From positions 17,697 to 62,087 of the forward strand of contig PFCY01000093.1 in NCBI GenBank assembly GCA_002763085.1: a DNA stretch of 44,391 nucleotides, in the 5' to 3' direction. The stretch's first letter is position 1. Each line of letters begins with the position of its first letter. This DNA comes from Candidatus Pacearchaeota archaeon CG10_big_fil_rev_8_21_14_0_10_32_14 (GTDB taxonomy: Archaea; Nanobdellota; Nanobdellia; Pacearchaeales; GW2011-AR1). Made by a program: the position numbers and the translations under genes. Below are positions 5,775 through 19,153 of this stretch, in pieces. A model generated the notes under the pieces. The model was not told the origin of the DNA. It saw only the letters and a list, made by a program, of their open reading frames with translations, and ran no database searches.

Positions 5775-6707
5775 ATGTCCAAAAATACAATAATTATTAC
5801 TTCATTCAAAGAACCACATACCATTGGAAAAGCGATTCAATCTTTTTTAGATCAAAATATTCTTCAGGAAGATTTAAAGAAAAAAAAGAAAGATTTTGAA
5901 ATAATAGTTTCCGCTCCCGATAAAGAAACATTAGATGTTGCAAGTAAAATTTCAAAAAAAGATAAACGCGTAATACCTTTTCAAGATCCAGGTAAAGGAA
6001 AAATGTTTGCATTGAATATGCTGTTCAAAAAATTAAAAAATAAATCTGAAATTTTAATATTGAGTGATGGAGATGTTTATGTTGGAGAAAATTCTCTTAA
6101 GTTCATCTTAGAACAATTTAAAGATGAAAAAGTTGGTTGTGTAACCGGCAGGCCAGTTTCTTTAGATTCAAGAGATAATATGCTCGGTTACTGGAGTCAT
6201 TTGCTTTGCGACGCTGGCGCGCATAAGGCAAGGCTCAAACGGCACAATTCTGGAAGCATGGTTGAGTGCTCTGGATACTACTGGGCATTTAGAAATAATG
6301 TAGTTGAAGAATTCCCTCTCGATGTTCCTGAAGATGCAATAATCCCATATTATTTTTGGCAAAAAGATTTCAAGGTGACCTACGCGCAGGAAGCAAAAGT
6401 TTATGTTTCATACCCAAAAAATTTACACGATTTTATAGATCAGAAAAAAAGAACTTCTAAAGCCCACGTCCAAATGGGTAAATACGTCGATTTCTCTAAA
6501 TATCCAAAAACAAAAACGTTCAAAAATGAATTCTTTGAATCTTACAGAGCATTTTTTTATCCAAGATCGCTTAAAGAAGTCTATTGGACAATTTTATTAT
6601 TCCCTGCAAAACTATATGTTTGGCTTTTAGTCTATTATCAACTCAGAGTCATGAAAAAAGAACACAAAGACGGTTGGCAAGTGACGAAGAGCACAAAGGT
6701 ATTCTAA
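5775..6707 (+). CDS. Glycosyltransferase family 2
   Basis: IIITSFKEPHTIGKAIQSFLDQ N-terminal GT-A motif, ILSDGDVYV (DxD). C-terminal TM segment. Confidence 0.8.
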   Translation: MSKNTIIITSFKEPHTIGKAIQSFLDQNILQEDLKKKKKDFEIIVSAPDKETLDVASKISKKDKRVIPFQDPGKGKMFALNMLFKKLKNKSEILILSDGDVYVGENSLKFILEQFKDEKVGCVTGRPVSLDSRDNMLGYWSHLLCDAGAHKARLKRHNSGSMVECSGYYWAFRNNVVEEFPLDVPEDAIIPYYFWQKDFKVTYAQEAKVYVSYPKNLHDFIDQKKRTSKAHVQMGKYVDFSKYPKTKTFKNEFFESYRAFFYPRSLKEVYWTILLFPAKLYVWLLVYYQLRVMKKEHKDGWQVTKSTKVF

Positions 6708-6768: not shown

Positions 6769-8565
6769 ATGGCGAAAAAGAGATTATTACTTGGTGCGGC
6801 TTATTCCGTTATCGAACCATTAGGTTTACTGCATTTGGCAGGTCTAGCAAGAGATTTAGATTGGGATAGAAAAATTCATCTCGTTAAAGATCATAACTTT
6901 GATTCGTTCTTCGATGCAGTAGAAGATTTCAAGCCTGACGTTGTTGGTTTCAATGTTTACACTGGAAATCATCTCCAGCTTTATGACGCATTTGAGCGAT
7001 TAAAAAAAGATCATCCAAACATTCAAACTATTCTTGGTGGTCCTCACGCAACGTATTTTCCAGTTCACGCTAGCGAACACGCAGACTACGTCGTAATGAG
7101 TGAAGGTTTCAATGCGTTAAGAAATATTCTCGATGGTCAAGCCCAAAAAGGAATTATGCCCATGGCAAAATCTGAACCATTTCCATTTCCAGACAGAGAA
7201 ACACTATATGCAGATTATTCCGAACATTCAAAATCTAGAATTAAAAGTTTAATCACTATGACTGGCTGCCCTTACAAATGCACATATTGTTATAATTCTT
7301 CAACTCCTGCCGACATTAATGTAACGCCAGAAATTGCAAAACAAATTGCGGCAACAATGGGTTCTTCTGGAAGACTTTTCCCCCACAACGTCCGTTCAAT
7401 TGACGATGTAATCAAAGAAGGAATCGAAATCGCACATAAATGGCCAACAGAGGTAATCTACTTCCAAGACGACGTCTTCGGTTTTGATATTCATCAATGG
7501 CTCCCTCAATTCAAGGAGCATTGGCCTAAGGAAGTGGGAATTCCTTACCATTCTCAAATGCGTTTTGAAATGATAGTAAACGAATCAGGACAAAAAAGAT
7601 TAGATTTAGTTAGAGAAAGCGGTGGATTTGGAATGACTCTCGCCATTGAAGCAGCAGATTATACCATCAGAGACGAAGTTTTAGATAGAAAAATGAAAGA
7701 AGAAATAATTTTTCAAGGAATGCAAAACGTATCAGACCGAGATTTCAAAATCAGAACTGAACAAATTACCGGCCTGCCTTACGGAGCAACTTCTAAGCAA
7801 ACAGCAATGAATCTCGATGCGGATTTGGGCTTAGTTGAATTAAACCTTAGACTCCGTCATGAAACCGGCCTTCCAACAATGGCTTGGGGTTCAACCTTTG
7901 CCCCTTACGCTGGAACAAAACTGGGAATATATTCAAAAGAATTTGGTCACTATCCAAAACTTGAAGATAACAGCGACGTCCCAGACACATTTTTTGACAG
8001 AAGTGTTCTTCGTTTCCCTAATCAATGGTACGGACCTAATTTAATCAATATTAAAGGTAACCATGACGTTTGGCTTGAAGGGGACGAACTTGAGAGATAC
8101 AGAAATCAAAACGCGGAATTAAGAAGAATTTTCAATTTTGTTACCTTAGTTCCACACGGAGAAAAACTAGCAAAAACTTATCTTGAAAGCAACGAACCTT
8201 ATAGTTTTGAAAGACTTGGTAGGGACACAATGACTCACTTAAAATCAATAGCACCTTCAAACCAGCAAGCCATAGAACTTCTCGAATCAATCCATTCTCT
8301 AAACTCAAAAGTTTTTTCTCTCGATGGAAATTTTAAGCACGTTCAAGACCTCGTTCCTTACTTCGGCATCCTTCCAAAGGGCAAACTAGCTCTTGACAGA
8401 TTCTTAGAATATGGAGCAAGAAAAGGTTTCAGCGCATCAACACTCTCAACCGCAACAAGACATCATTTATACGATAACGTTCTTTATGACACAGGAAAAA
8501 GCAGTTATAACCGAGTCTTCCCTTCTCCCTTTGAAGAGGCAAGACAATCAAATTTGAAGATATAA
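6769..8565 (+). CDS. B12-binding-domain radical SAM enzyme (class B radical SAM, substrate unknown)
   Basis: N-terminal cobalamin-binding-like Rossmann region (LLGAAYSV...DVVGFNVYTGN...ILGGPHATYFP) followed by TGCPYKCTYCYN (CxxxCxxC). Confidence 0.85.
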   Translation: MAKKRLLLGAAYSVIEPLGLLHLAGLARDLDWDRKIHLVKDHNFDSFFDAVEDFKPDVVGFNVYTGNHLQLYDAFERLKKDHPNIQTILGGPHATYFPVHASEHADYVVMSEGFNALRNILDGQAQKGIMPMAKSEPFPFPDRETLYADYSEHSKSRIKSLITMTGCPYKCTYCYNSSTPADINVTPEIAKQIAATMGSSGRLFPHNVRSIDDVIKEGIEIAHKWPTEVIYFQDDVFGFDIHQWLPQFKEHWPKEVGIPYHSQMRFEMIVNESGQKRLDLVRESGGFGMTLAIEAADYTIRDEVLDRKMKEEIIFQGMQNVSDRDFKIRTEQITGLPYGATSKQTAMNLDADLGLVELNLRLRHETGLPTMAWGSTFAPYAGTKLGIYSKEFGHYPKLEDNSDVPDTFFDRSVLRFPNQWYGPNLINIKGNHDVWLEGDELERYRNQNAELRRIFNFVTLVPHGEKLAKTYLESNEPYSFERLGRDTMTHLKSIAPSNQQAIELLESIHSLNSKVFSLDGNFKHVQDLVPYFGILPKGKLALDRFLEYGARKGFSASTLSTATRHHLYDNVLYDTGKSSYNRVFPSPFEEARQSNLKI

Positions 8566-8569
8566 GAAT

Positions 8570-8579
8570 CTTTATATAG
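8570..8579 (+). promoter_or_regulatory. TATA box for the metzincin gene
   Basis: CTTTATATAG, centre ~30 nt upstream of ATG 8604. Confidence 0.45.
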
Positions 8580-8603
8580 TAGTCATCGTAAAGTGATTAC
8601 TAT

Positions 8604-9461
8604 ATGAAGAACACTTTAAACCATAATCTTGTGATTATCTATATTGCAGTTTCCTTATTTGCAATTTTTTTTCTGTTTTATCAAGTAATTCAAGATGATT
8701 ATAATTTATCTATCTCAAAGCGATTAAGCACAAATAAAAATTTTTCATTACCGTCAGTCGTTCAAGAGTTTAATCAAAAGCAATATAAAGTTTATGTTAA
8801 AGACTTGCCATATAAAATTGATCCAGAATATAAAAAATCAGTTGACGAGGCAGTTTCTTATTGGGAACAAAAAGAAAATGTTGATTTCGTTTATACGGAT
8901 GAAGAAGAAAACGCTGATTTGATCATTTATTGGGCTAAAGATTTCAGCGTCGGGCATGTCGGTTATGCTTATGAAAATTTAATAGAAATTGGACTTGGAG
9001 ATAGTTATTGTTACAATGACTGGAGACCTTACTCGTATGAATACGTCACTCAAAATATGAAACACGAATTCGGACATTTTTTAGGCTACGAACATTCACA
9101 GGATGAAAACGACATAATGTACTTTCAATCAAAACAAGAATATGATTATACTCTCAATGAATCCGATGTCTTACCTTCGGGATATTATCAATATTATGGA
9201 GTTTGCACATTATACGAAAACACAAAATTATCCATCATAGTTTCATCAGATAAAAATATCGATGTATTGATTGTTCCTTCATATGAAGACTATGAACTGA
9301 TGATCGACGGAAAAAAATATGATTCATACGAAAAATGTTCTTCATCTGATATAAATAATTATTCTCTAATATGTAATGTAAGTGATGAATCAGGCATAGT
9401 TATAATCAATAAATCTAAAGATAATGTGAATTTTTCTATTGAAGTGAGTGAAGAGTATTGA
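8604..9461 (+). CDS. Membrane-anchored metzincin (matrixin-like) zinc metallopeptidase
   Basis: HEFGHFLGYEHS = HExxHxxGxxH, followed by a Met-turn candidate (DIMYF). N-terminal TM anchor. Confidence 0.75.
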   Translation: MKNTLNHNLVIIYIAVSLFAIFFLFYQVIQDDYNLSISKRLSTNKNFSLPSVVQEFNQKQYKVYVKDLPYKIDPEYKKSVDEAVSYWEQKENVDFVYTDEEENADLIIYWAKDFSVGHVGYAYENLIEIGLGDSYCYNDWRPYSYEYVTQNMKHEFGHFLGYEHSQDENDIMYFQSKQEYDYTLNESDVLPSGYYQYYGVCTLYENTKLSIIVSSDKNIDVLIVPSYEDYELMIDGKKYDSYEKCSSSDINNYSLICNVSDESGIVIINKSKDNVNFSIEVSEEY

Positions 9462-9595
9462 ACATATGAATTATTTTCTTTATTGAATAATTATCACGAT
9501 CTATCTTATAATAAAAGGAAATTTGAAAAAGTTTTAATAATGGTGTATATACTAACACAATAAAATTTATTTACTCGATTGTGTTAAATCAACGA

Positions 9596-9619
9596 CCCAG
9601 TCGCAGCAGAGCTGCGGGG
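9596..9619. other. GC-rich hairpin CCC-agt-CGCAGC-AGA-GCTGCG-GGG in the 379-bp spacer
   Basis: A 6-bp all-G/C-rich stem plus a 3-bp extension stands out in an otherwise ~20% GC spacer. Confidence 0.5.
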
Positions 9620-9840
9620 TATAACGATTAAATCAAATAATATACAACCAATAATAAATAATACATTAAATAAAATCTCATTCGACAAATAATAAAAGCC
9701 GGAAACTCCATTGAAAGACAAGTTTAACCTCCATCCGTTCCCCCACAGAAACTTTTATATATGTATGTACCTATGTATATACATCTGGGTAAGTCCTAGA
9801 GAGGTTTGTGTACCGGAATGGTGCACCTTATATTAAATCT

Positions 9841-10479
9841 CTAGGGTCCGGATAACTTTTGAAAAACCTCCTTCTTCATTACTATCTTAACCTTGATTAT
9901 TTCAATAAATCTTGGATCTTTAAATTCATAATTTCTAAATATTGCCCAAGAAACAAAATCTAAAACTTGTAAACATCCATCATTATAAGAATTTTCATGT
10001 TTGATAATAAACTTATTCAGGTGATTTTTTTCATTCATTGTCTTTTTAATATAATTGTCAAAATCGTCTCTTAATGACCTATTTGATTTAGACTTATCTA
10101 CAACTAAACAAACGGAAGATGTATCAAACGAACATTCGTTTAATATTAAGTTTGAAATATAATTATAGAGTTTATTCTTTTTATCTTTTAAATATTCATA
10201 GACCTTTGATTTTTCTAAAATAATAACAAAAACTTCAGCATTTGTCTTTGTGAATCTCTCTAAAACTTCTATTCTTATTTTGTCGGTGCTATTATTCCCT
10301 TTTATTTCAGGATATTTTTTTAACTCTTTTTTTATTAGCTTCTCTCTTACTTTTTTTATTATTCTTCGTAATGTATAAATCTCGCCTTCATCGCAAGAAA
10401 GAAGAGTTATGATGAAATACTTACTGGATCTCTCTTTAAAACCCAATTCACCACTTTCATCTAAAAAGATATATTTCAT
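9841..10479 (-). CDS. DUF3800-family protein
   Basis: N-terminus MKYIFLDESGELGF matches the DUF3800 (I/V)F(I/L)DESG signature. Isolated gene with long spacers on both sides. Confidence 0.65.
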   Translation of the reverse strand: MKYIFLDESGELGFKERSSKYFIITLLSCDEGEIYTLRRIIKKVREKLIKKELKKYPEIKGNNSTDKIRIEVLERFTKTNAEVFVIILEKSKVYEYLKDKKNKLYNYISNLILNECSFDTSSVCLVVDKSKSNRSLRDDFDNYIKKTMNEKNHLNKFIIKHENSYNDGCLQVLDFVSWAIFRNYEFKDPRFIEIIKVKIVMKKEVFQKLSGP

Positions 10480-10593
10480 ATACTATAACAAAAATCCTTA
10501 ATATAAAAAAGTTTATACCTCTCAACCTTATCATTTATCTCACTTAATGTAAATTATACATATACTCTGGAACAATAATCTTTATATTGTGTT

Positions 10594-10603
10594 TTGTATA
10601 CAA
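10594..10603. promoter_or_regulatory. Perfect 10-bp palindrome TTGTATACAA between the pncB TATA box and the predicted TSS (candidate operator)
   Basis: TATA TTTATATT is at 10581-10588. The palindrome lies 6-15 nt downstream. A further 7-bp-stem hairpin lies at 10608-10628 before ATG 10636. Confidence 0.4.
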
Positions 10604-10635
10604 TTAGTTATTGTAAACGCAACAATAACAATAAA

Positions 10636-11769
10636 ATGAAAACAAAAAAATTCGACTTCCCTAAGGACCACAAACCATATGCGGATAAGTATTTCTTAAG
10701 GACAAATGATATTTTGAGATCTGAAGGTTTAAATCCTTGGGTGAGGGCACAGGTGTTCATACGAAAAGGTCCTGGCGAAGTCTATGGAATTGATGAAGCT
10801 CTTGCAATTCTTGACAAATATTCAAACTTAAAGAAACATGGAGGAAGAGTTTTTGCTTTGAATGAAGGAGCTCATTACGAAAGTAAAGAAACTTTAATGT
10901 TAATAGAAGCTCACGTTCAGGATATTGTTGAACTAGAAACGATGTATCTTGGAGTGCTAAGTGCTCAAACAAAGAAGGCCAATGATCATAGAGGTGTAGA
11001 TCTTGAAGAAGTAACTCGGCGTATGGCTTAGGTAGTCGAAGCAGCTAATGGGAGACCTGTAACTTATTTCGGAGCTAGACACTGGAGATTCGATGAAGAC
11101 GCTGATATTGCTTACGCAACTTTCAAAGGCGGTGCGGTCGGAACCTCAACGGATATAGGCGCAGCAACATTCGGAAAAAAAGGAGAAGGAACAATCCCAC
11201 ATATTCTCGAAAACGTCATGGCTTACAAATATGGTCTTCAAAATGCCGTCGTTGAAGCTACAAAATCATTCGATAGACACATTGATTCAAATGTTCCGAG
11301 AATCGCATTGATAGATTATGCAAATAGAGAAGACACAGATACACTAAAAGTTGCAGACGCTTTAGGAAATAAATTGAATGCTGTAAGAGTCGATACTTGC
11401 GGAGAAAATGTTATGCAAGGCGGCACTCTCGGAAAATTAGAATATTGGGATGGAAACGGAGTTACAATCTTAGGAGTGGACTCATTAAATCGAGTTTTAA
11501 GAGATGTGAATAGAGAAGATGTAAAAGTAATATTAACAAGTGGATTTGGCGACGTTTCAAAAGTCGAGGCATTTGCATACGCAGAAAAATATTTAGGACG
11601 AAAATTATTCGACGGTCTTGGAGTTGGCGGTATCTTTGAATCACGAATGGCAACGATGGATGTAGTTGCGATAGGTGATGAAAGAGATCATATGATTCCT
11701 ATGTCAAAAGTCGGAAGAGTTTACAGACCAAATCCAAACTTGGAATTAAGACTTGGATGTGGAAAATGA
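10636..11769 (+). pseudogene. pncB: Nicotinate phosphoribosyltransferase, archaeal type, interrupted by an in-frame TAG at 11029-11031
   Basis: Homology to archaeal NAPRTase as I recall Thermoplasma Ta1145 (GTIPHIL, ALIDYANRE, VRVDTCG, ILTSGFGD, LGVGG) continues in the same frame right across the TAG. 62 in-frame codons lie between the TAG and the ATG of the second track ORF. Confidence 0.8.
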
Positions 11770-12335
11770 AAACAATATTTTTTGACGTAGACACACAAAA
11801 TGATTTTATGAATAAAGATGGAGCTCTCTATGTTACTGGCGCGGAATTAATCAAACCTAATTTAGAACAATTAACTGATTTTGCTAAATTAAATAATATT
11901 CCTGTTTTAGGAAATGTGGATAGACATTTTGGAACAATAGAGTTTAAAGAACGTGAAGGAGAACTTCAAAAATGGGGTGGACCTTTTCCGAATCATTGTA
12001 TGCATGGGGAAATTGGACAATTAAAAATATACGAAACCACTCTTGAACTTGGAAATTTAAAATTCGAAGATTCATATGATAGTGGATTATATATCCCACA
12101 TATGATTTATCATGGATTTCAAGAAACACCTATTCCAAAAAATGTTATTGAACTTTGGAAAACTCTCAATAAAATTAATCCGGTTGAAATCTTGGAAGAG
12201 TTCTGGGCTGATTGCAGGAGAGGAATTGATGATCTCCGTGTAAATAAGGCATTGGAAGAAATAAACTTAGTATATAACGGAAAGAAAAAACCAAAGAAGA
12301 TACAAAGGATGATTGTTCCACAAAAGAATTATTGA
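11766..12335 (+). CDS. Isochorismatase/nicotinamidase-like protein, with a C-terminal half unlike PncA (possibly degraded)
   Basis: N-terminus IFFDVDTQNDF..GALYV and PFPNHCMHG resemble PncA. The expected K and G-x-A-T-D-x-C-V catalytic Cys region was not found in any frame. ATGA overlap with the pncB stop. Confidence 0.45.
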   Translation: MKTIFFDVDTQNDFMNKDGALYVTGAELIKPNLEQLTDFAKLNNIPVLGNVDRHFGTIEFKEREGELQKWGGPFPNHCMHGEIGQLKIYETTLELGNLKFEDSYDSGLYIPHMIYHGFQETPIPKNVIELWKTLNKINPVEILEEFWADCRRGIDDLRVNKALEEINLVYNGKKKPKKIQRMIVPQKNY

Positions 12336-12390
12336 GAAACATAGCAAATTTCTTCATAGGATAGATTAATATATTCTGATGTGAATTTTA

Positions 12391-13338
12391 TTGCTCGGAG
12401 GAGAACTATTATATTGTCCAAGAATTACTCAAGTTATAAGTGAGTTGAATATTCATCCGATAATCACAACGAATGGTCATAGACTGAGAGACAAATCATT
12501 TAGAGAAAATTTAGATTACCAAAAAATTAAAGCGATGAATATTAGTTTACCTCATTATGATCACGCTAAAAGAATTGAAATCATGCGATGTCAAGGTCTA
12601 TCAAATCCTGATTTAGAAGAAATTGTGAAGAACATTCCATTGCAGGTAAGAATAAATGCATTGCTGATTAATGGTTATATAGATTCATTGGATGAAGTTC
12701 ACAAGATGATTGAATTTGCAAAATATCATGGAGCGCATTCAATTAAATTTGGAGAAATTACAGGCAACAACGAATCATCACACGACTTTGTATCTGATGA
12801 AGTAATGAGATATAATGTTGAGCATTATTGTAAAATCCCAATTTCAGAAATGTATAAAAAATGCCACGAAATTGGAGGAACCCATTATTATGATAATATT
12901 TCTGGTATTGATGTATATTTCAACTCTGCACCTGATTTCGCATTATCTGGAGGTAGAGATAAAAATGGAAAATATTATCACGCAGTTTTATTTAATGATG
13001 GAATGCAAGGAACCAGATATCATCCTAAACTTCCTGTTTGTCATGCGTATATAGTGAGTGAAAACTTAACCACAAGATTCTTTACTAATCCTATCACTTT
13101 TAGTAAATTTGATGAAAACCGAGACAATCTTTTTGAGTTGTTAGGAGAATTGGTGGATAAAGATTGTACCTTTATTCCCCGTCCCCACGATATTGTTTTA
13201 GCAACTGTATATCAACCCCATGAAAGCCAAATTGCTCAAGAAGACATTTCAAGAAGAACCTTTATGAGAGTAGAATATTCTCTAAAAAAATTCGATAGAA
13301 AAGATAATAGTAAAAACCATTTATTAGATACTGGTTAG
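12391..13338 (+). pseudogene. Radical SAM domain protein lacking the N-terminal CxxxCxxC segment (5'-truncated)
   Basis: Begins (TTG in the track) at the GGE SAM-binding motif: LLGGELLYCP...IITTNGHRL. Stops lie just upstream in frame (TGA 12382, TAA 12367). A possible, weaker upstream piece lies in another frame (12278-12361). Confidence 0.5.
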
Positions 13339-13401
13339 AAATATATAAATAGAGATGTCCCTCCTTACTTAATAAAAGAACTGCAGTTGACACTGGGTGG
13401 A

Positions 13402-14307
13402 ATGGAGAGAAGAGAATTTAAAATGAACCCCTCACAAATCCTCATCGTCCCGAAAATATCGAAAGTACAGCATGACATGAGACGGATGAACTTTGATAAA
13501 ATTCAGCTTGTAGAATTTTATAAAAAAGAAAAACTTCATGTTGATCGTATTTTTGAAAGTCATGACAGACAAGTCCACGCACTTGAGACGATAAAAAAAC
13601 ATCTTCCTCATGTTCGTGTTGTAAATAGAAATGAAATAACAAAAGATCTCGTATCAAAGTATAAACTTGTAATCACTTTAGGCGGAGATAATCATTTTCA
13701 GTATGTTTCACATTTTATAAAAGATTCTTTGATTCTTGGAATAAACAACGATCCTGAGCGGAGCGAAGGTGCACTCAATTCAATCACATCAAATGAAATA
13801 GAAAGTGTAATCCCAAAAATACTTGACGATGATTTTAAAATTGAGACTTGGACACGACTGGAAACTTCCGTTGAAGATATAACTATTTCAACTTTAGCAG
13901 TCTCTGAAATTTACATCGGAGAAGAATCGCGTTACACGATGTCAAGGCATCAGTTAATTCATAATAATGACGTTGAAGAACAAAAAGGTTCTGGACTTTT
14001 GATTTCAACTGGTGCAGGCTCGACCGGATGGTTCGATTCAGCGATACGGTATTTACATCCTAATGGAAAAGTCATAAGCCGCGATGCTAAAGAAGTTCAA
14101 TTTCTTCTCACGGAACCTCACAAAGGAAAATTTTCTATATACAAGATGACTCATGGAATAATAAAAGAAAACGATGTCTTTGAAATAATCTCACTCAATG
14201 ATTCTGATGGAGTTTTACTCATAGATTCTCTTGAGAAAATAAAAATAAAAGAAGGATCAAAAATTAAAATAAAGCTCGGAGAAAAACTTAGAGTTGTAAA
14301 TTTTTAA
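13402..14307 (+). CDS. nadK: NAD kinase, NADK2 (C5orf33)-like subtype
   Basis: ITLGGDNHF (GGDG-like), GINNDPERSEGAL, SEIYIGEE and EEQKGSGLLISTGAGSTGW closely resemble my recollection of human NADK2 (GVNTDPERSEGHL, NEVFIGE, EKQKSSGLNLCTGTGSKAW). Start chosen at the first ATG after the TATA at ~13340. Confidence 0.75.
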   Translation: MERREFKMNPSQILIVPKISKVQHDMRRMNFDKIQLVEFYKKEKLHVDRIFESHDRQVHALETIKKHLPHVRVVNRNEITKDLVSKYKLVITLGGDNHFQYVSHFIKDSLILGINNDPERSEGALNSITSNEIESVIPKILDDDFKIETWTRLETSVEDITISTLAVSEIYIGEESRYTMSRHQLIHNNDVEEQKGSGLLISTGAGSTGWFDSAIRYLHPNGKVISRDAKEVQFLLTEPHKGKFSIYKMTHGIIKENDVFEIISLNDSDGVLLIDSLEKIKIKEGSKIKIKLGEKLRVVNF

Positions 14308-14308
14308 A

Positions 14309-14758
14309 ATGAAATACATAGAATGTTCAGAGATTTATGTTCCGCGAAATGGAGAGATGCCACTTTTTTTAACTGGAGGAATATCTGAATGTGAAGTTTG
14401 ACAAGAAGATTTAATTGAAAAACTCAAATATTCTGATTTAACTTTAATAAATCCTAGAAGAAAAGATTACGATTTCAACGATCCAAACATTGAAACTCAG
14501 CAAGTAGAATGGGGGTTTGAGCATCTCCATAAGGCGAGGGGCGTTTCATTTCGGTTTCCGCCTCAAACTCTTTGTCCAATCACTCTTTATGAATTAGGAA
14601 AGATATCTGTTGGAAACAAACCACTTTTTATTAGAGTTCATCCTGATTATAAAAGAAAAAGGGATATTGAAATACAGACTGGACTTATAAGACCGGATGT
14701 TAAAATTGTCCATTCGCTTGATGATTTAGTAGAACAGATAAGGGAGTGGGGTCAATAG
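14309..14758 (+). pseudogene. Nucleoside 2-deoxyribosyltransferase-like protein with an in-frame TGA at 14399-14401
   Basis: MKYIECSEIYVPRNGEMPLFLTGGISECEV[TGA]QEDLIEKL... then 118 more in-frame codons to TAG at 14756. The LFLTGGI..C..(W)Q pattern is the N-terminal motif of this family as I recall it. Starts 1 nt after the nadK stop. Confidence 0.6.
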
Positions 14759-14783
14759 TGAAATCTACTCGGGATAATATAAA

Positions 14784-14794
14784 TCTTTAAATAT
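14784..14794 (+). promoter_or_regulatory. TATA box driving the 17-codon SDR stub
   Basis: TCTTTAAATAT, centre ~26 nt upstream of ATG 14815. Confidence 0.4.
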
Positions 14795-14916
14795 GAAATC
14801 TCCTCGATAAAAACATGGTAAAAAACATTTTAGTAAATGGAGCAAGCGGAAGTTTCATAAGCATATGATGTCTTCCAGGAAATAGAATGCTCACCATCAT
14901 CAAAATAATTTCTAAA

Positions 14917-14927
14917 CCTTTAAATAT
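14917..14927 (+). promoter_or_regulatory. TATA box for the NrtR-like gene
   Basis: CCTTTAAATAT, ~30 nt upstream of ATG 14954. Confidence 0.45.
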
Positions 14928-14953
14928 CTTCTCGTTTTTATTACACTATCAAA

Positions 14954-15631
14954 ATGAAAAAAACAGAATCACTTTCAGACTTTGAGCAACCATCAGTCAC
15001 CGTTGATATAGTTGTTTTTACAATTCGTGATGAAGAATTGAAAATACTCCTTGTTAAAAGAAATCTCGATCCATTCATAGATAAGTGGGCGCTTCCCGGA
15101 GGCTTTGTTCGAATCAATGAGTCGCTTGAAGATGCCGCAAAAAGAGAGCTCGTTGAAGAAACGGGCGTTAAAGATGTTTATTTAGAACAACTTTATACCT
15201 TCGGCGAACCAAAAAGAGACCCGCGAGGGCGTGTAATCACTGTCGCTTATATGGCTTTGATAAATTCTAATGAGATAACACTGAAAGCCTCCACAGATGT
15301 TAAAGAAACGGGTTGGTTTTCAATAAAAAAAATACCCCCTCTCGCCTTTGACCATAAAAAAATTCTATTTTACGCTCTAAAAAGATTACAATGGAAATTC
15401 GAATACACCCCAGTTTCATTTTCCTTGCTTGACGATGAATTCACAATAGGACAAATTCAGAAAATATATGAAATCGTATTTGACAAAGAATTCGACAAAA
15501 GAAATTTTGCAAAAAAAATATTATCCCTCGATATTCTCCAAGAAAAAGGGATAAAAAAAGATGTTTCTCATCGTCCACCCATGCTCTATTCTTTGAAAAA
15601 TAATCTCCCTAAAATAATTGAAATTATCTAA
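14954..15631 (+). CDS. nrtR: NrtR-like Nudix hydrolase fused to a C-terminal winged-helix domain (candidate NAD-metabolism regulator / ADP-ribose pyrophosphatase)
   Basis: Nudix box GGFVRINESLEDAAKRELVEETG, RDPRGRVITVAYMAL, then C-terminal FTIGQIQKIYEIVFDKEFDKRNFAKKILSL, which is typical of the NrtR wHTH domain. Confidence 0.75.
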   Translation: MKKTESLSDFEQPSVTVDIVVFTIRDEELKILLVKRNLDPFIDKWALPGGFVRINESLEDAAKRELVEETGVKDVYLEQLYTFGEPKRDPRGRVITVAYMALINSNEITLKASTDVKETGWFSIKKIPPLAFDHKKILFYALKRLQWKFEYTPVSFSLLDDEFTIGQIQKIYEIVFDKEFDKRNFAKKILSLDILQEKGIKKDVSHRPPMLYSLKNNLPKIIEII

Positions 15632-15692
15632 TATATTCGTTAATTCACACATATACTTAAATATTTCTTGATACAATTTCTTCAGATTTAAT

Positions 15693-15881
15693 ATGACAAA
15701 GGAAGAGGATTGGATTAGAGAGTCGGTGACTTTTTTTGTAGCATGGGTTATATGTATGGTCTTATGGTCAATTTGGTTAGAAGGGATATTTATCCCTATA
15801 ATCGGGATAATGACCACATTAGTTTTTGAATTTATACTCCATATATTTAGATTTCTTGAACATGGTACTTACATGGGATAA
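15693..15881 (+). CDS. Small two-TM membrane protein, hypothetical
   Basis: 62 aa with two hydrophobic helices. A TATA-like ACTTAAATATTT lies ~30 nt upstream. The overlapping antisense ORF 15521-15817 was rejected. Confidence 0.35.
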   Translation: MTKEEDWIRESVTFFVAWVICMVLWSIWLEGIFIPIIGIMTTLVFEFILHIFRFLEHGTYMG

Positions 15882-15974
15882 ACAATTCCACAACATTTAA
15901 ATGTATAATTGTCTATAGATAAATATGAAAAAAAATTTAATGATCTCGTTCATTGACAATATAGGATATATAAA

Positions 15975-16415
15975 ATGAGATATGAAAAATATTCAAAACC
16001 TATTTTAAGAATTTCTATGGCGTTAGTGTTTTTATATTTTGGATTTAGTCAAATGACATCTCCGGATAACTGGACTGGTTTTGTTCCTCAAAAAATCGTC
16101 GACTTAACTCCATTCACCGCAACTAATATAGTTATGATGAACTCAGTACTTGAATTGTGTTTAGGGCTTTTCTTGATTTTAGGGCTTTACACAAGATTTT
16201 CTGCATTAATTTTATCATTACATCTATTTGGAATAACAACCTCATTAGGATTTACCCATTTAGGCGTTAGAGATTTTGGGTTAGCATTTGCAACTTTAGT
16301 TGTTTTCTTAAATGGAAAAGATGATTATTGCATGGATAATAAGTTTTTAAGTAAAAAAGAAGTTTCAATACATATTGAAGTACCTGACCATGATCACAAT
16401 CATGAACATAAATAA
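15975..16415 (+). CDS. DoxX-family membrane protein with a His-rich C-terminal tail
   Basis: LRISMALVFLYFGFSQM and 4 TM helices are typical of DoxX. Tail is EVPDHDHNHEHK. Confidence 0.7.
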   Translation: MRYEKYSKPILRISMALVFLYFGFSQMTSPDNWTGFVPQKIVDLTPFTATNIVMMNSVLELCLGLFLILGLYTRFSALILSLHLFGITTSLGFTHLGVRDFGLAFATLVVFLNGKDDYCMDNKFLSKKEVSIHIEVPDHDHNHEHK

Positions 16416-16451
16416 TATTATTAATTCTTATCCATCAGATTTAATATAAAT

Positions 16452-16461
16452 CCTTATAAAG
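16452..16461 (+). promoter_or_regulatory. TATA box for the 16483 ORF
   Basis: CCTTATAAAG, centre 26 nt upstream of ATG 16483. Confidence 0.4.
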
Positions 16462-16482
16462 TATTAGTCATATTTAACTAAC

Positions 16483-16860
16483 ATGGCGCAAGAAATTAAA
16501 ACTGATTCTGGAGAAATTTTAATAGTTAGAGAAATACCTAAAGAGCATAAAATAAAATTTTTAGCAAAAAGTTTAGAAGGGGATAAATTTTACGTAGTTC
16601 ATGAACCTAATGAAAGTAAATACTCCGCGGATTATTGAATGGGAGTATATATTGGTAAACCTAATGCAATGCAAGAAGCAAGAATAAATGAAGTTGAAGT
16701 ATACCGAAATGGAGGATCAACAAAGATATTATATACCTTAAATAATCAAGAAGGGAAGTTATATTTTTCTCAGAGATTGGATGGTATAGGAAAGTCTTAT
16801 GATGAATATAAAGGTAGATTTGTAGAGTTAGAATTATTAGTAGTTGATGAAAATTTATAA
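16483..16860 (+). CDS. Hypothetical beta-rich protein: either one gene with an in-frame TGA (16636-16638) or two tiny abutting genes (16483-16638 and 16639-16860)
   Basis: ATG at 16483 lies 26 nt from the centre of the TATA CCTTATAAAG. 51 codons, then TGA, then an in-frame ATG and the 73-aa track ORF. Confidence 0.35.
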
Positions 16861-16904
16861 CAAAAAAGAAATAAGTTTAAATTCTATTTATCTTTCTAAT
16901 AATC

Positions 16905-17540
16905 ATGAAACTACCTATTCCATTCATTCCTTCAAGAAAAGATACTGATTGCGGTCTTGTTGCGCCAATGATGGCTTTTCAATATTTCGGAAAAAAATAT
17001 TCTTTCGACAATATTTCAATAGAGACTAAACAACTAGAAAGCGGAATGGTTTGGAGTTTGGGAATTGCTCGAGCATCAGCAAAACTCGGATATAAAACAA
17101 AATACTTTTCTTCAAGCATTACTGATTTACATAGTGATTTAGATTTTTATAAAAAATATGCTAATGATAAGGCGATGTTAGTTCTAAAAGATCTTCAAGA
17201 AGAATCTTCTAAACTTGGCGTTCAAATCGTTGAAAAAAGTTTGTCTTTAGAAGAGTTGCTGTCTTTTGTAACTGAAGATTCTATTCCAATTGTCTTACTC
17301 AACTGGTTCGTTATTTCAGGAAAAGACGGATATTTTGGACATTTTGTTCCTCTTACAGGTTACGATGAAAAATTTATATATATCCATAATCCAGGAATGA
17401 AAAATCCTCAAGAATTCATGCCTATTGAAAAATCTCTTTTTCAAAAAGCGTGGGAATCTAAAGGAACTGATAAAGACACGATTGTGATTTATAGAGAAAA
17501 AGTTCAAATCTCCACAAACATTAAAAACTATATTTCTTAA
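16905..17540 (+). CDS. Stand-alone papain-fold peptidase C39-like (C39_2/BtrH-like) cysteine peptidase
   Basis: Catalytic Cys context RKDTDCGLVAPMMAFQYFG and His context GHFVPLTGYD...IHNPG. Confidence 0.7.
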   Translation: MKLPIPFIPSRKDTDCGLVAPMMAFQYFGKKYSFDNISIETKQLESGMVWSLGIARASAKLGYKTKYFSSSITDLHSDLDFYKKYANDKAMLVLKDLQEESSKLGVQIVEKSLSLEELLSFVTEDSIPIVLLNWFVISGKDGYFGHFVPLTGYDEKFIYIHNPGMKNPQEFMPIEKSLFQKAWESKGTDKDTIVIYREKVQISTNIKNYIS

Positions 17541-17548
17541 GAAATCTT

Positions 17549-19153
17549 ATGACTGAAAACGAAGACAAAAAAGAAGAAACCGCTCCAGTTTCCACTCCCG
17601 TAGAAAATCATCCTCATAAATCAGAATCTAAATCAAAACAAAAAGATTTTATTCAAAAATCAATTTCTTGGCTAAAGAAAGACAGACTAAATTTAGTGCT
17701 TGTTGCAATTCTCATATTTGCATTTGCAGTTCGTGTTCATTACTTTCTTCTTGTCGGAGGCGAACAGCCATTATGGTGGGACGAACTTGCATTCGGAAGT
17801 ATCGCTAAAAACTACGTGATGCATTTATGGAATTCTACTGATTTAATCTCAAAAGAGATTGTAATTCGTCCCCCTCTCCTTCCATTAGTTTGGGCTGCGT
17901 TCTTATTATTAAAAATCCCGGAAACTTATATAAGATTTATTCTTGAAATAATTCCTTCAACATTAACAATTTTATTCATTTACCTCGCAGGAAAAGAAAT
18001 TTTTAATAAAAAAACCGGATTAATCGCTGCATTTATTTTCAGCGTGTCCTACATTCATTTGTTTTATTCTCTTAGATTGATGACAGATATTCCATCTCTG
18101 ACTTTTTTATCAGCAAGCTTATATTTCTTTGTGGCTTCATTAAATAAAGAAAAAATAAATTATCCGCAGTATTCTTTATCTTTATTTCTTTTGACACTTG
18201 GAGCTTTGACAAGATACCAAAATGGAATTATTTTCGTCCTTTATTTTATAATCCTTCTTCTTGGAAAAAATTTAAGATTAAAAGATAAAAAATTCTGGAC
18301 TTATTCTTTTATAGGAATATCTCCCCTATTGATTTTCTTTATTCTTAATATAATTATTTTTCACAATATTTTCCCCGCATTTTTGAGTGATATTTATGTT
18401 GGAGGTGTTGAAAATAAAAGTCCCGTGGCTTGGAATTTGATTAACTTTATCCCACTGTTCTTAAAAACAGCATTAATTTACTTTTTTTTGATAGGAATCT
18501 TTTTTTTAATTTATGAGATAGGGATTAGTTACAATTTTATTACCTCTAAGAAAAATCTTCAATATTATTTATTAACGCTACTTTTCTTTTTATTTATCTT
18601 TTCATTTTTTATCTTCTATATGCGCGCAGCTGAAGATCGATGGCTCATGCCTGCATTGATTCCTTTAGCATTAATCACTGCATTTGGCATCTATAACATT
18701 TACTTTTATATTGAAAAATATAACAAGTATGCTGCGCTAGTATTTATCATTGTAATTCTTTTTTTGGGTGCTCAAGCTCAGTTTAAGCATGCCGATGGAT
18801 TAATCAAACAGAAAAAAGACTCTTATCTTCAAATGAAACAAGGTTTCGAATGGATTAAAGATAATACTCCAAAAGATTCGGTAATCATTGGAAATGCCAT
18901 TCAACCTTATACAGTTTACTATGGCGAAAGACAATATTTACAGTTACCTCAAAACGAATCTAATGTTAATGAGATATATGAAGCGGATTATCTAGTTATC
19001 CACACTTTTGTTGAACAACCAAATTATATCATCCAATATCTTCAATATAATGAGGATAAATGGAAGATGATACAGGCATATTTTTTTGATTCAGATCAAA
19101 AACAACCCGCGTTTATATTATTTGAAAATATAAACAAAACAAATTTTGGATAA
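17549..19153 (+). CDS. GT-C fold membrane glycosyltransferase (ArnT/PMT_2, GT39/GT83-like)
   Basis: More than 10 TM helices, first-loop acidic motif PLWWDELAFG, C-terminal soluble domain. Confidence 0.8.
   Translation: MTENEDKKEETAPVSTPVENHPHKSESKSKQKDFIQKSISWLKKDRLNLVLVAILIFAFAVRVHYFLLVGGEQPLWWDELAFGSIAKNYVMHLWNSTDLISKEIVIRPPLLPLVWAAFLLLKIPETYIRFILEIIPSTLTILFIYLAGKEIFNKKTGLIAAFIFSVSYIHLFYSLRLMTDIPSLTFLSASLYFFVASLNKEKINYPQYSLSLFLLTLGALTRYQNGIIFVLYFIILLLGKNLRLKDKKFWTYSFIGISPLLIFFILNIIIFHNIFPAFLSDIYVGGVENKSPVAWNLINFIPLFLKTALIYFFLIGIFFLIYEIGISYNFITSKKNLQYYLLTLLFFLFIFSFFIFYMRAAEDRWLMPALIPLALITAFGIYNIYFYIEKYNKYAALVFIIVILFLGAQAQFKHADGLIKQKKDSYLQMKQGFEWIKDNTPKDSVIIGNAIQPYTVYYGERQYLQLPQNESNVNEIYEADYLVIHTFVEQPNYIIQYLQYNEDKWKMIQAYFFDSDQKQPAFILFENINKTNFG

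Follow-up and report, generated by a model that had tools for sequence, protein, structure and literature searches.

Why do genes for the metabolism of nicotinamide adenine dinucleotide (NAD) stand in the middle of a glycan gene cluster in a DPANN archaeon, and do they still work? We analysed a stretch of 44,391 nucleotides (the window) from Candidatus Pacearchaeota archaeon CG10_big_fil_rev_8_21_14_0_10_32_14 (GCA_002763085.1, contig PFCY01000093.1, positions 17697-62087), whose assembly of 1.15 Mb in 112 contigs is 84% complete and has a G+C content of ~32%. Ribosomal protein L21e marks the genome as archaeal, and the named near homologs of its proteins belong to Nanoarchaeota and Pacearchaeota. 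A preliminary description made from the sequence had marked positions 9841-16860 of the window as an island of NAD metabolism and had proposed that it might be an acquired NAD-homeostasis or counter-depletion cassette. Pfam, NCBIfam and PDB profile matches placed all of the genes that it named where it had put them, and the families found bear out the NAD focus of the block. Four of the six "NAD" open reading frames (ORFs) are damaged: two are interrupted by in-frame stop codons (TAG at 11029-11031 and TGA at 14399-14401), one is truncated and one is a chimera. The block is probably an eroded copy of an NAD salvage and recycling cluster controlled by the regulator NrtR, a cluster that has a patchy distribution across this DPANN class. 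The only members predicted to be intact are an NADK2-type NAD kinase and NrtR itself.

The nicotinate phosphoribosyltransferase (NAPRT)-like gene encodes a type II phosphoribosyltransferase that is nearest to archaeal NAPRT models (NCBIfam 7e-40 and 3e-37, both below the cut-off), and its best PDB match is 2i14. The TAG falls at codon 132 of 377; homologous sequence both precedes and follows it, and it aligns with L, E and E in three intact relatives; the invariant motifs downstream are kept. The same TAG recurs in an independent assembly (L093), the one contig that covers the site (1/1). This gene is a probable young pseudogene, and the uninterrupted NAPRT frame expected of a Preiss-Handler route was not found. 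Of 41 close relatives, 4 have NAPRT, which stands at the head of a larger cluster where it is present; the same-genus genome has none. In the adjacent nicotinamidase-like ORF of 192 aa, BLASTP detected homology for residues 7-117 only, with 63% identity to the protein of relative G331, and nothing beyond. The relatives' nicotinamidases are 214-244 aa long and possess FEKQ.YDVF and GVAT..CV motifs; the window ORF has no catalytic Lys and Cys regions, and the Asp-Lys-Cys triad is thus incomplete. A tblastn search for a remnant of the lost half in other frames found none.

The next ORF, of 315 aa, had been taken for a radical-SAM (S-adenosylmethionine) remnant. An exhaustive HMMER analysis confirmed the radical-SAM part and revealed two disjoint sets of matches, so that the ORF as a whole is a chimera of two truncated, unrelated genes. 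Residues 1-210 match positions ~53-262 of MoaA/viperin-like radical SAM proteins of 286-294 aa and lack their first ~52-60 residues, including the CxxxCxxC motif, which reads CNYNCLFC in full-length homologs that also give a Radical_SAM Pfam match. Residues ~200-315 match positions 110-222 of 236 aa, the C-terminal part of an unrelated family of ~240 aa. The halves meet in frame at an F.DGM.G stretch common to both (~12988-13020), and this junction resembles a deletion or recombination at microhomology. Full-length homologs of the radical-SAM fragment were found in non-NAD neighbourhoods. A single large deletion running from the middle of pncA through nadE into the cluster's own radical-SAM gene was considered and rejected, because the fragment belongs to a different stand-alone family with non-NAD contexts and the ORF is chimeric. 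A reading of the fragment as a prokaryotic viperin (pVip) found no support either: pVip/viperin scores were weak, and for the full-length homologs MoaA models matched at least as well as the viperin model.

In the PF15891 gene, the TGA occupies a conserved Trp codon; where four relatives read GGI(S/T)GC..WQ, the window has GGISECEV*Q. This TGA recurs in 5/5 other assemblies. The gene also shows G-to-E and W-to-R changes at positions that are invariant in the four relatives (SFWF to SFRF). In a relative-rate test it was only 2-3 identity points more diverged from the outgroups than its intact ortholog, which is a small excess. The 195-bp spacer between this gene and nrtR holds the starts of two genes whose bodies have been deleted. 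The first 12 codons of a GAPDH-like gene lie on the forward strand (14815-14850), and directly abutting them on the reverse strand (14897-14850) are the first 16 codons of a gene for a methyltransferase fusion of 496 aa; the tblastn matches of these relics are MVKNILVNGASG and MVSILFPGRHHMLMKL. In the close relative L081, ~2.9 kb lie between the same two points, and in a DNA alignment the two L081 flanks match the window before and after the junction. The 496-aa gene stands between the PF15891 gene and nrtR in L081, G257 and G332.

Proteins of this type, of ~500 aa, consist of a conserved N-terminal domain (LFPGRHHMLT.FQ ... TSANHSNTRRNP) fused to a SAM methyltransferase. Their genes are divergent and adjoin nrtR (L081:3332-4822(-), G257:C1:104167-104817 and G332:C6:11862-12512), with the relic at 14850-14897 in the window. 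We examined the 496-aa protein as a candidate NMN adenylyltransferase (NMNAT) and found little for it: the one supporting match was a weak one to TIGR01527 (archaeal NMNAT) at 2.4e-4, and a profile-profile comparison with NadD lent no support (probability 0.1%). No relics of NadE, NadD or a Nudix hydrolase were found upstream of the kinase. Genome-wide, there are at most ~5 other candidates for split genes of the NAPRT kind (two same-frame halves of at least 100 aa). Thus, the lesions are concentrated at the NAD block.

Table 1. Features of the NAD block and its surroundings, with positions in the window
Feature	Position	Strand	Basis or remark
Inserted segment	6769-17540		Missing between orthologous GT2 and PMT_2 glycan genes in two relatives
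Spacer, 379 bp	9462-9840		Holds dispersed hairpin repeat copy at 9585-9638
DUF3800 gene	9841-10479	-	PF12686, 4.8e-14
Two NrtR operator-like sites	10587-10605, 10609-10627		Weight matrix
NAPRT-like gene (pncB type), TAG-interrupted	10636-11769	+	QRPTase_N; NCBIfam NAPRT models
Nicotinamidase-like (isochorismatase-fold) ORF, truncated	11757-12335	+	BLASTP to relatives
Chimeric ORF, radical-SAM fragment plus unrelated C-terminal part	12391-13338	+	HMMER
NADK2-type NAD kinase, predicted intact	13420-14307	+	NCBIfam, PDB profile
PF15891 nucleoside-2-deoxyribosyltransferase-like gene, TGA-interrupted	14309-14758	+	Pfam, 6.3e-14
Deletion scar, two gene-start relics	14815-14897		tblastn, DNA alignment
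NrtR operator-like site	14930-14948		Weight matrix
NrtR, predicted intact	14954-15631	+	PF00293, PF21906, NF050029
DoxX membrane protein, small ORFs, C39-like peptidase	15975-17540	+	Pfam; DoxX 15975-16415, C39-like 16905-17540

Intact versions of this cluster are present in relatives. In G018 (contig C2), it comprises 12 genes, encoding NAPRT, nicotinamidase, nucleoside hydrolase, NadE, Nudix, PnuC, NadR, ADP-ribosylglycohydrolase (ARH), NAD kinase (NADK), NadD, radical SAM and NrtR. Similar gene sets in the same order were found in G035, G331, G306, G246, G174, G257 and G332, and in the 20 NrtR neighbourhoods that we examined, NrtR usually terminates a cluster of this order. The window copy shares with the G018 cluster the order NAPRT, nicotinamidase, ..., NADK, (PF15891), nrtR, as well as the operator motif and its tandem spacing of 22 bp, and its NAPRT and NrtR are 60% and 65% identical to those of G018. 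Unlike the intact clusters, it lacks NadE, NadD, NadR, PnuC, the Nudix hydrolase, ARH and the nucleoside hydrolase, and it carries two nonsense codons, a truncation, a chimera and a deletion scar. It is also surrounded by glycan genes; in G018, the neighbour of the cluster is a family B DNA polymerase gene. The closest relatives keep, beside the kinase, genes that are missing here: NadE-NadD-Nudix stand directly upstream of NADK in L082, with an intact PF15891 start downstream, and L081 has ARH-NADK-PF15891 with PF15891 intact. The more modest alternative of the preliminary description, the salvage route of a host-dependent archaeon, describes these intact clusters and not the window copy. The comparison with the relatives' versions makes the block a gene-by-gene record of the dismantling of a cofactor pathway in a DPANN archaeon.

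Two further features of the relatives' clusters were noted. First, several of them (L010:1270-2142(-), L011:14126-16056, L054, L060 and L067) hold a conserved MoaA/viperin-like radical SAM protein of 290-294 aa with a CNA.CP.C motif, often overlapped by a 358-aa aminotransferase-like protein; this family differs from that of the radical-SAM fragment in the window. Second, quinolinate synthase NadA is encoded in the clusters of L011, L054, L057, L059 and L066, and neither NadB, NadX nor a separate NadC was seen in the fetched stretches of these clusters. One may ask whether those steps fall to the NAPRT-like enzyme or to the radical-SAM/aminotransferase pair.

We then asked what remains of NAD synthesis elsewhere in the genome. 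NAD synthetase (PF02540), QRPTase_C and classical NADK domains had no match in it, and tblastn with the relatives' NadE, NadD, NadR, PnuC, ARH, nucleoside hydrolase and NadA returned nothing. The four CTP_transf_like (PF01467) matches look like sugar-nucleotide enzymes on inspection of their motifs, and one of the four is itself broken. The preliminary description had asked whether a de novo pathway exists, and no de novo genes were found in this 84% complete assembly; likewise, neither the nicotinic acid mononucleotide (NaMN)/NMN adenylyltransferase nor the NAD synthetase of the Preiss-Handler route was found there. To that extent the NAD route appears to have been lost. Because no NadD, NMNAT or NadE was found and the NAPRT, PF15891 and nicotinamidase genes are broken, the cassette as sequenced should be unable to work in salvage. 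A third cytidylyltransferase-like gene of this genome (similar to HldE domain II; G000:C90:7123-7394) is broken by one TGA, with the match continuing in another frame.

The kinase, of 295 aa, was correctly recognised as NADK2-type. Its family profile matched human mitochondrial NADK2 at 2.5e-30, compared with 5e-12 for bacterial NadK and 1e-8 for archaeal NadK; NCBIfam NAD kinase models matched the gene down to 4e-12, and the best PDB match was NADK2. It is 82% identical to the kinase of L082 and 78% identical to that of L081. The features reported for the C5orf33-type kinases include G-x-N-(S/T)-D-P and S-T-G-W (PMC3535332). We looked for GGD(G/N), G-x-N-(S/T)-D-P and the Trp of S-T-G-W as marks of NADK2-type membership and found all three: the window kinase reads GGDN, GINNDP (family consensus GINSDP) and STGW. 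By the profile match and these motifs, the DPANN kinase family would be assigned to the NADK2/C5orf33 type rather than to classical NadK, and PF01513/PF20143 matched nothing in the genome, this kinase included. The gene is the only NAD kinase candidate of the genome, as tblastn with the relatives' NADKs matched nothing else. Just 8 of 41 relatives keep the kinase, so that the usual condition in the group is complete loss.

The NrtR-like regulator was likewise identified rightly, as a Nudix domain followed by a winged helix (PF00293 7e-22, PF21906 4e-20 and NF050029 3e-52, the last below the curated cut-off). Its Nudix box, read from the sequence as G-x5-E-x7-RELVEETGV, is complete, and the protein is 84% identical to the NrtR of L081. 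Full-length NrtR is encoded in ~35 of 301 genomes of the class. In most relatives, the operator TAGTGT-N7-ACACTA lies upstream of the first cluster gene and of nrtR, often as tandem sites 22-23 bp apart. Sites matching at least 14 of the 16 positions numbered 21 in 430 kb of the relatives' loci; this genome, of 1.15 Mb, has none. The relatives' sites (training median 21 bits) served to build a weight matrix, whose scores were ranked across 1.15 million genome positions. The two sites before the NAPRT-like gene ranked 8th and 10th (11.1 and 10.8 bits) and are spaced 22 bp apart, and the second of them is a perfect palindrome, TATTGT-N7-ACAATA. Both lie between a TATA-like TTTATAT (10582-10588), which may be the NAPRT promoter, and the NAPRT ATG. 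The site before nrtR ranked 4th (11.9 bits) and lies 5 bp upstream of the nrtR start, at the same place as in relatives; of its two half-sites, the right one (ACACTA) is perfect and the left one degenerate. Thus, three of the ten best matches in the genome fall at the two expected promoters, with scores about half those of the relatives' sites, and the window appears to retain weakened copies of the NrtR operators. Those of the other top matches that were checked as possible further NrtR targets lie within ORFs.

These features agree in many respects with the bacterial NrtR regulons (Rodionov et al. 2008, PMC2330246), in which the regulator has the same N-terminal Nudix domain and C-terminal winged helix, palindromes of ~19-21 bp with a GT-N7-AC core lie upstream of NAD salvage genes and nrtR, and the targets include genes of the pncA, pncB, nadD, nadE and pnuC-nadR type. 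The differences are that the host is a DPANN archaeon, whose operators seem to adjoin TATA-like archaeal promoter elements, that the relatives add the NADK2-type kinase, the PF15891 protein and the radical-SAM plus aminotransferase-like pair, and that in the window most targets appear dead and the operators carry about half the bits of the relatives' sites. The literature that we searched contained no description of an NrtR regulon in DPANN archaea, and the window adds one degenerate case to this regulon.

Taken together with what is known of these families, the findings suggest the following scenario. In the intact form, NrtR would bind the tandem TAGTGT-N7-ACACTA sites in two promoters, that of the first gene and that of nrtR. 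A build-up of ADP-ribose would release it, by analogy with bacterial NrtR, and this release would turn on nicotinamidase, NAPRT, NadD, NadE, PnuC, NadR, the Nudix ADP-ribose hydrolase, ADP-ribosylglycohydrolase and the NADK2-type kinase. In the lineage studied here, the cluster may have been placed in the glycan cluster by rearrangement or by transfer from a close relative. Deletions and point mutations would later have trimmed it: nonsense codons arose in the NAPRT and PF15891 genes, the catalytic half of the nicotinamidase was lost, fragments of two unrelated genes were fused into one ORF, and two genes were reduced to their first codons by a deletion of ~2.9 kb. A cell that can no longer build NAD would presumably take NAD or a late precursor from its host and would still need the kinase for NADP.

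Obligate symbionts and parasites undergo reductive erosion of pathways whose product a host supplies. The block resembles such erosion in its clustered nonsense mutations, deletions and fusions, and in that most close relatives are already without the pathway. It differs in that the loss, here in an archaeon, seems to have been caught at a halfway point where the regulator and the NAD kinase, as the last enzyme, are still intact. The pattern supports host dependence for NAD and points to an order of loss in which the kinase and the regulator go last.

Several points weigh against this reading. The missing NadD, NMNAT and NadE could lie in DNA that the incomplete assembly, in its 112 contigs, does not include. 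Apart from their single stops, the NAPRT and PF15891 frames and their conserved motifs are intact; these near-intact frames and the low excess of divergence mean that inactivation was recent or that some product is still made. At the glycan-cluster site, the event may have been either translocation or transfer. In addition, the repressor action and ADP-ribose response of the DPANN NrtR are taken over from bacterial NrtR.

A bolder pair of proposals, which we regard as rather unlikely, goes beyond erosion. On the one hand, the surviving pair could be a working minimal module in which an ADP-ribose-sensing NrtR governs the NADK2-type kinase in an archaeon unable to make NAD, with NAD imported whole from the host. 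On the other hand, the DPANN kinase family could be a prokaryotic relative of the eukaryotic mitochondrial NADK2/NADK3 clade. The eukaryotic NADK clades are reported to lack a consistent prokaryotic sister, and the origin of NADK2/NADK3 has been reported as unresolved (PMC6675116).

Among the alternatives to an eroded cluster, the one that survives best, though improbable, is that the salvage genes still work, with the TAG and TGA read through or suppressed, or with the split products assembling, so that nicotinate is converted to NaMN. Each interrupted gene has a single stop and no frameshift, its motifs are kept, the TGA falls exactly at a Trp codon, and the stops are fixed across several samples. 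Near-cognate read-through at TGA-for-Trp sites is known in other organisms. Against this, two different stop codons are involved, and both are ordinary terminators genome-wide: the long ORFs follow the standard genetic code and are ended by TAA in 525 cases, TGA in 217 and TAG in 111. Furthermore, the NadD and NadE needed to use NaMN were not found, the neighbouring nicotinamidase has no catalytic regions, the PF15891 gene has its additional changes at invariant positions, and deletions surround the interrupted genes. An alternative code or recoding was rejected on the same grounds, namely two different stops, the use of all three stops to terminate long ORFs, and the small number of other split candidates.

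Where the eroded cluster came from depends first on its setting. In a genome of the same genus (G001:C2), the orthologs of 5775-6707 and 17549-19153 are next to each other, in this order and 47 bp apart, and in a genome of the same family (G018:C4), the glycan genes are colinear and the segment is absent, with the NAD cluster of G018 located elsewhere. The synteny comparison proposed in the preliminary description thus showed absence at this site in both relatives. Because the glycan cluster is uninterrupted in G001 and G018, the segment 6769-17540 is an insertion in this lineage. The flanking genes are glycan genes (GT4, GT9, GT2, PMT_2 and NTP transferase), so the idea of an island among glycan genes stood, with limits wider than those first drawn. 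The comparison of composition showed no break: the tetranucleotide distance lies at the 26th-49th percentile and the GC content at the 46th-89th percentile of genome windows. A foreign origin of NrtR found no support either, since the tree groups it with the L081 protein and then with members of the window's own family. Mapped on this tree, the family labels require 19 changes against a shuffled mean of 23, and a number as low was reached in 0 of 200 shuffles.

These data bear on the possibility that the cluster was recently picked up from a bacterium and is decaying because it fits poorly into an archaeal host. In the literature searched, NrtR is described only for bacteria, and by NCBIfam best matches the relatives' NadD, NadR and PnuC are of bacterial type. 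Nevertheless, the named near homologs of NrtR all belong to Nanoarchaeota or Pacearchaeota, full-length NrtR and its operators are found in many of the families in this class, the fit of the NrtR tree to the family labels exceeds chance, and the composition is native. From the spread of NrtR, its tree and the composition, it follows that any bacterial origin would be an ancient one, dating from the time of the spread within the class or earlier, and we hold a recent acquisition to be quite improbable.

A still weaker case can be made for a working compact cassette of NAD homeostasis or counter-depletion, acquired as a unit, that rebuilds NAD(P) after the action of immune effectors or viruses. 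Compared with G001 and G018 the block is inserted, its left edge bears a copy of a mobile hairpin repeat, and phages are known to carry the NAD reconstitution pathways NARP1, NARP2 and NARP3 (PMC13464706), which are likewise compact gene sets that rebuild NAD. What speaks against a working cassette is first of all that four of six genes are broken and that neither a dinucleotide-forming enzyme (NadD/NMNAT) nor NadE was found. No NMNAT, PnuC or NadR was found in the genome, so that the gene pairs of NARP2 (NAMPT plus NMNAT) and NARP3 (PnuC plus NadR) are not present, NAMPT itself not having been searched for; for NARP1 (ADPR-PP synthetase plus NAMAT), the block proteins gave no such Pfam or NCBIfam match, and no search aimed at ADPS or NAMAT was made. 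On the block, PADLOC reported no more than two weak and generic matches, pVip for the radical-SAM fragment (7.6e-6) and PDC-S07 for the Nudix domain (3.8e-9), and no SIR2_2 or TIR_2 domains were found in the genome. The locus also differs from the phage pathways in being cellular. No viral homolog of the kinase was found in INPHARED or IMG/VR, and homologs of NrtR occur on two IMG/VR contigs with no other cluster genes beside them; a viral origin was rejected for these reasons.

A second comparison is with the ARG-centred operons with Nudix-HTH or WYL regulators, for which a role against viral ADP-ribosylation has been proposed (PMC9503650, section 3.8). The likeness lies in a Nudix-HTH regulator that probably senses ADP-ribose and in the ADP-ribosylglycohydrolase of some relatives' clusters. 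The window, unlike these operons, has no glycohydrolase, coupled phosphatase, chaperone or nuclease, and the relatives' glycohydrolase is embedded among biosynthetic NAD genes. As for marks of a mobile island, there is no tRNA, no integrase domain occurs in the block proteins, and repeats are at chance level only; the one dispersed element at the left edge is the 54-bp repeat copy. The preliminary description had itself stated that vertical inheritance in relatives, an unbroken composition and the lack of a mobile or defence link would speak against such a cassette. This is largely what we observed: a conserved cluster in many relatives, a family-consistent NrtR tree, ordinary composition, and no such link. 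Together with the broken genes, these results make the counter-depletion proposal very unlikely, and the tempting reading of the block as an NAD counter-defence cassette is removed. The two viral-labelled contigs with full-length NrtR homologs, 47-51% identical, are L098 (IMGVR_UViG_3300012582_000005, 288 kb, with 27% GC at the locus) and L099; the 288-kb contig may be cellular or come from a very large virus.

Finally, one can dismiss the notion that errors of assembly or binning in a single metagenome-assembled genome produced the interruptions. The bin is fragmented, but five other samples or projects (ENA, Logan and JGI) yielded independently assembled contigs that are 99.96-100% identical over the region and carry the same stops, chimera and deletion scar. 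Assembly error was accordingly ruled out as the source of the lesions. Across all six assemblies, the region differs only at 14050 (T/G, in one assembly) and 16057 (C/T, in three). With two variable positions among six assemblies, the population is nearly clonal across samples.

The borders of the block needed some revision. The right limit at 16860 was not borne out: the DoxX gene and the C39-like gene to its right are 71% and 69% identical to genes of the close relative L081, where they are syntenic with the block in the same order. In this relative, DoxX, the small ORFs and the C39-like gene accompany the block as neighbours; none of them is an NAD gene. On the left, the 379-bp spacer that had been pointed out is real. 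It holds a GC-rich hairpin repeat of ~54 bp, copies of which, 95-98% identical by blastn, occur on contigs C21 (two), C45, C70, C77, C105 and C112. Rfam, tRNA and repeat scans of the block were all negative, and the spacer itself gave no Rfam or tRNA match, including the GC-richer part of its remainder. The DUF3800 gene is a lone gene outside the conserved cluster; no homolog was found beside the relatives' NAD clusters, and PADLOC gave no match for it. Further to the left (6769-9461), the same segment of 10.8 kb that is absent from the G001 and G018 glycan clusters encodes a B12-binding radical SAM protein of 598 aa and a matrixin-like metalloprotease of 285 aa.

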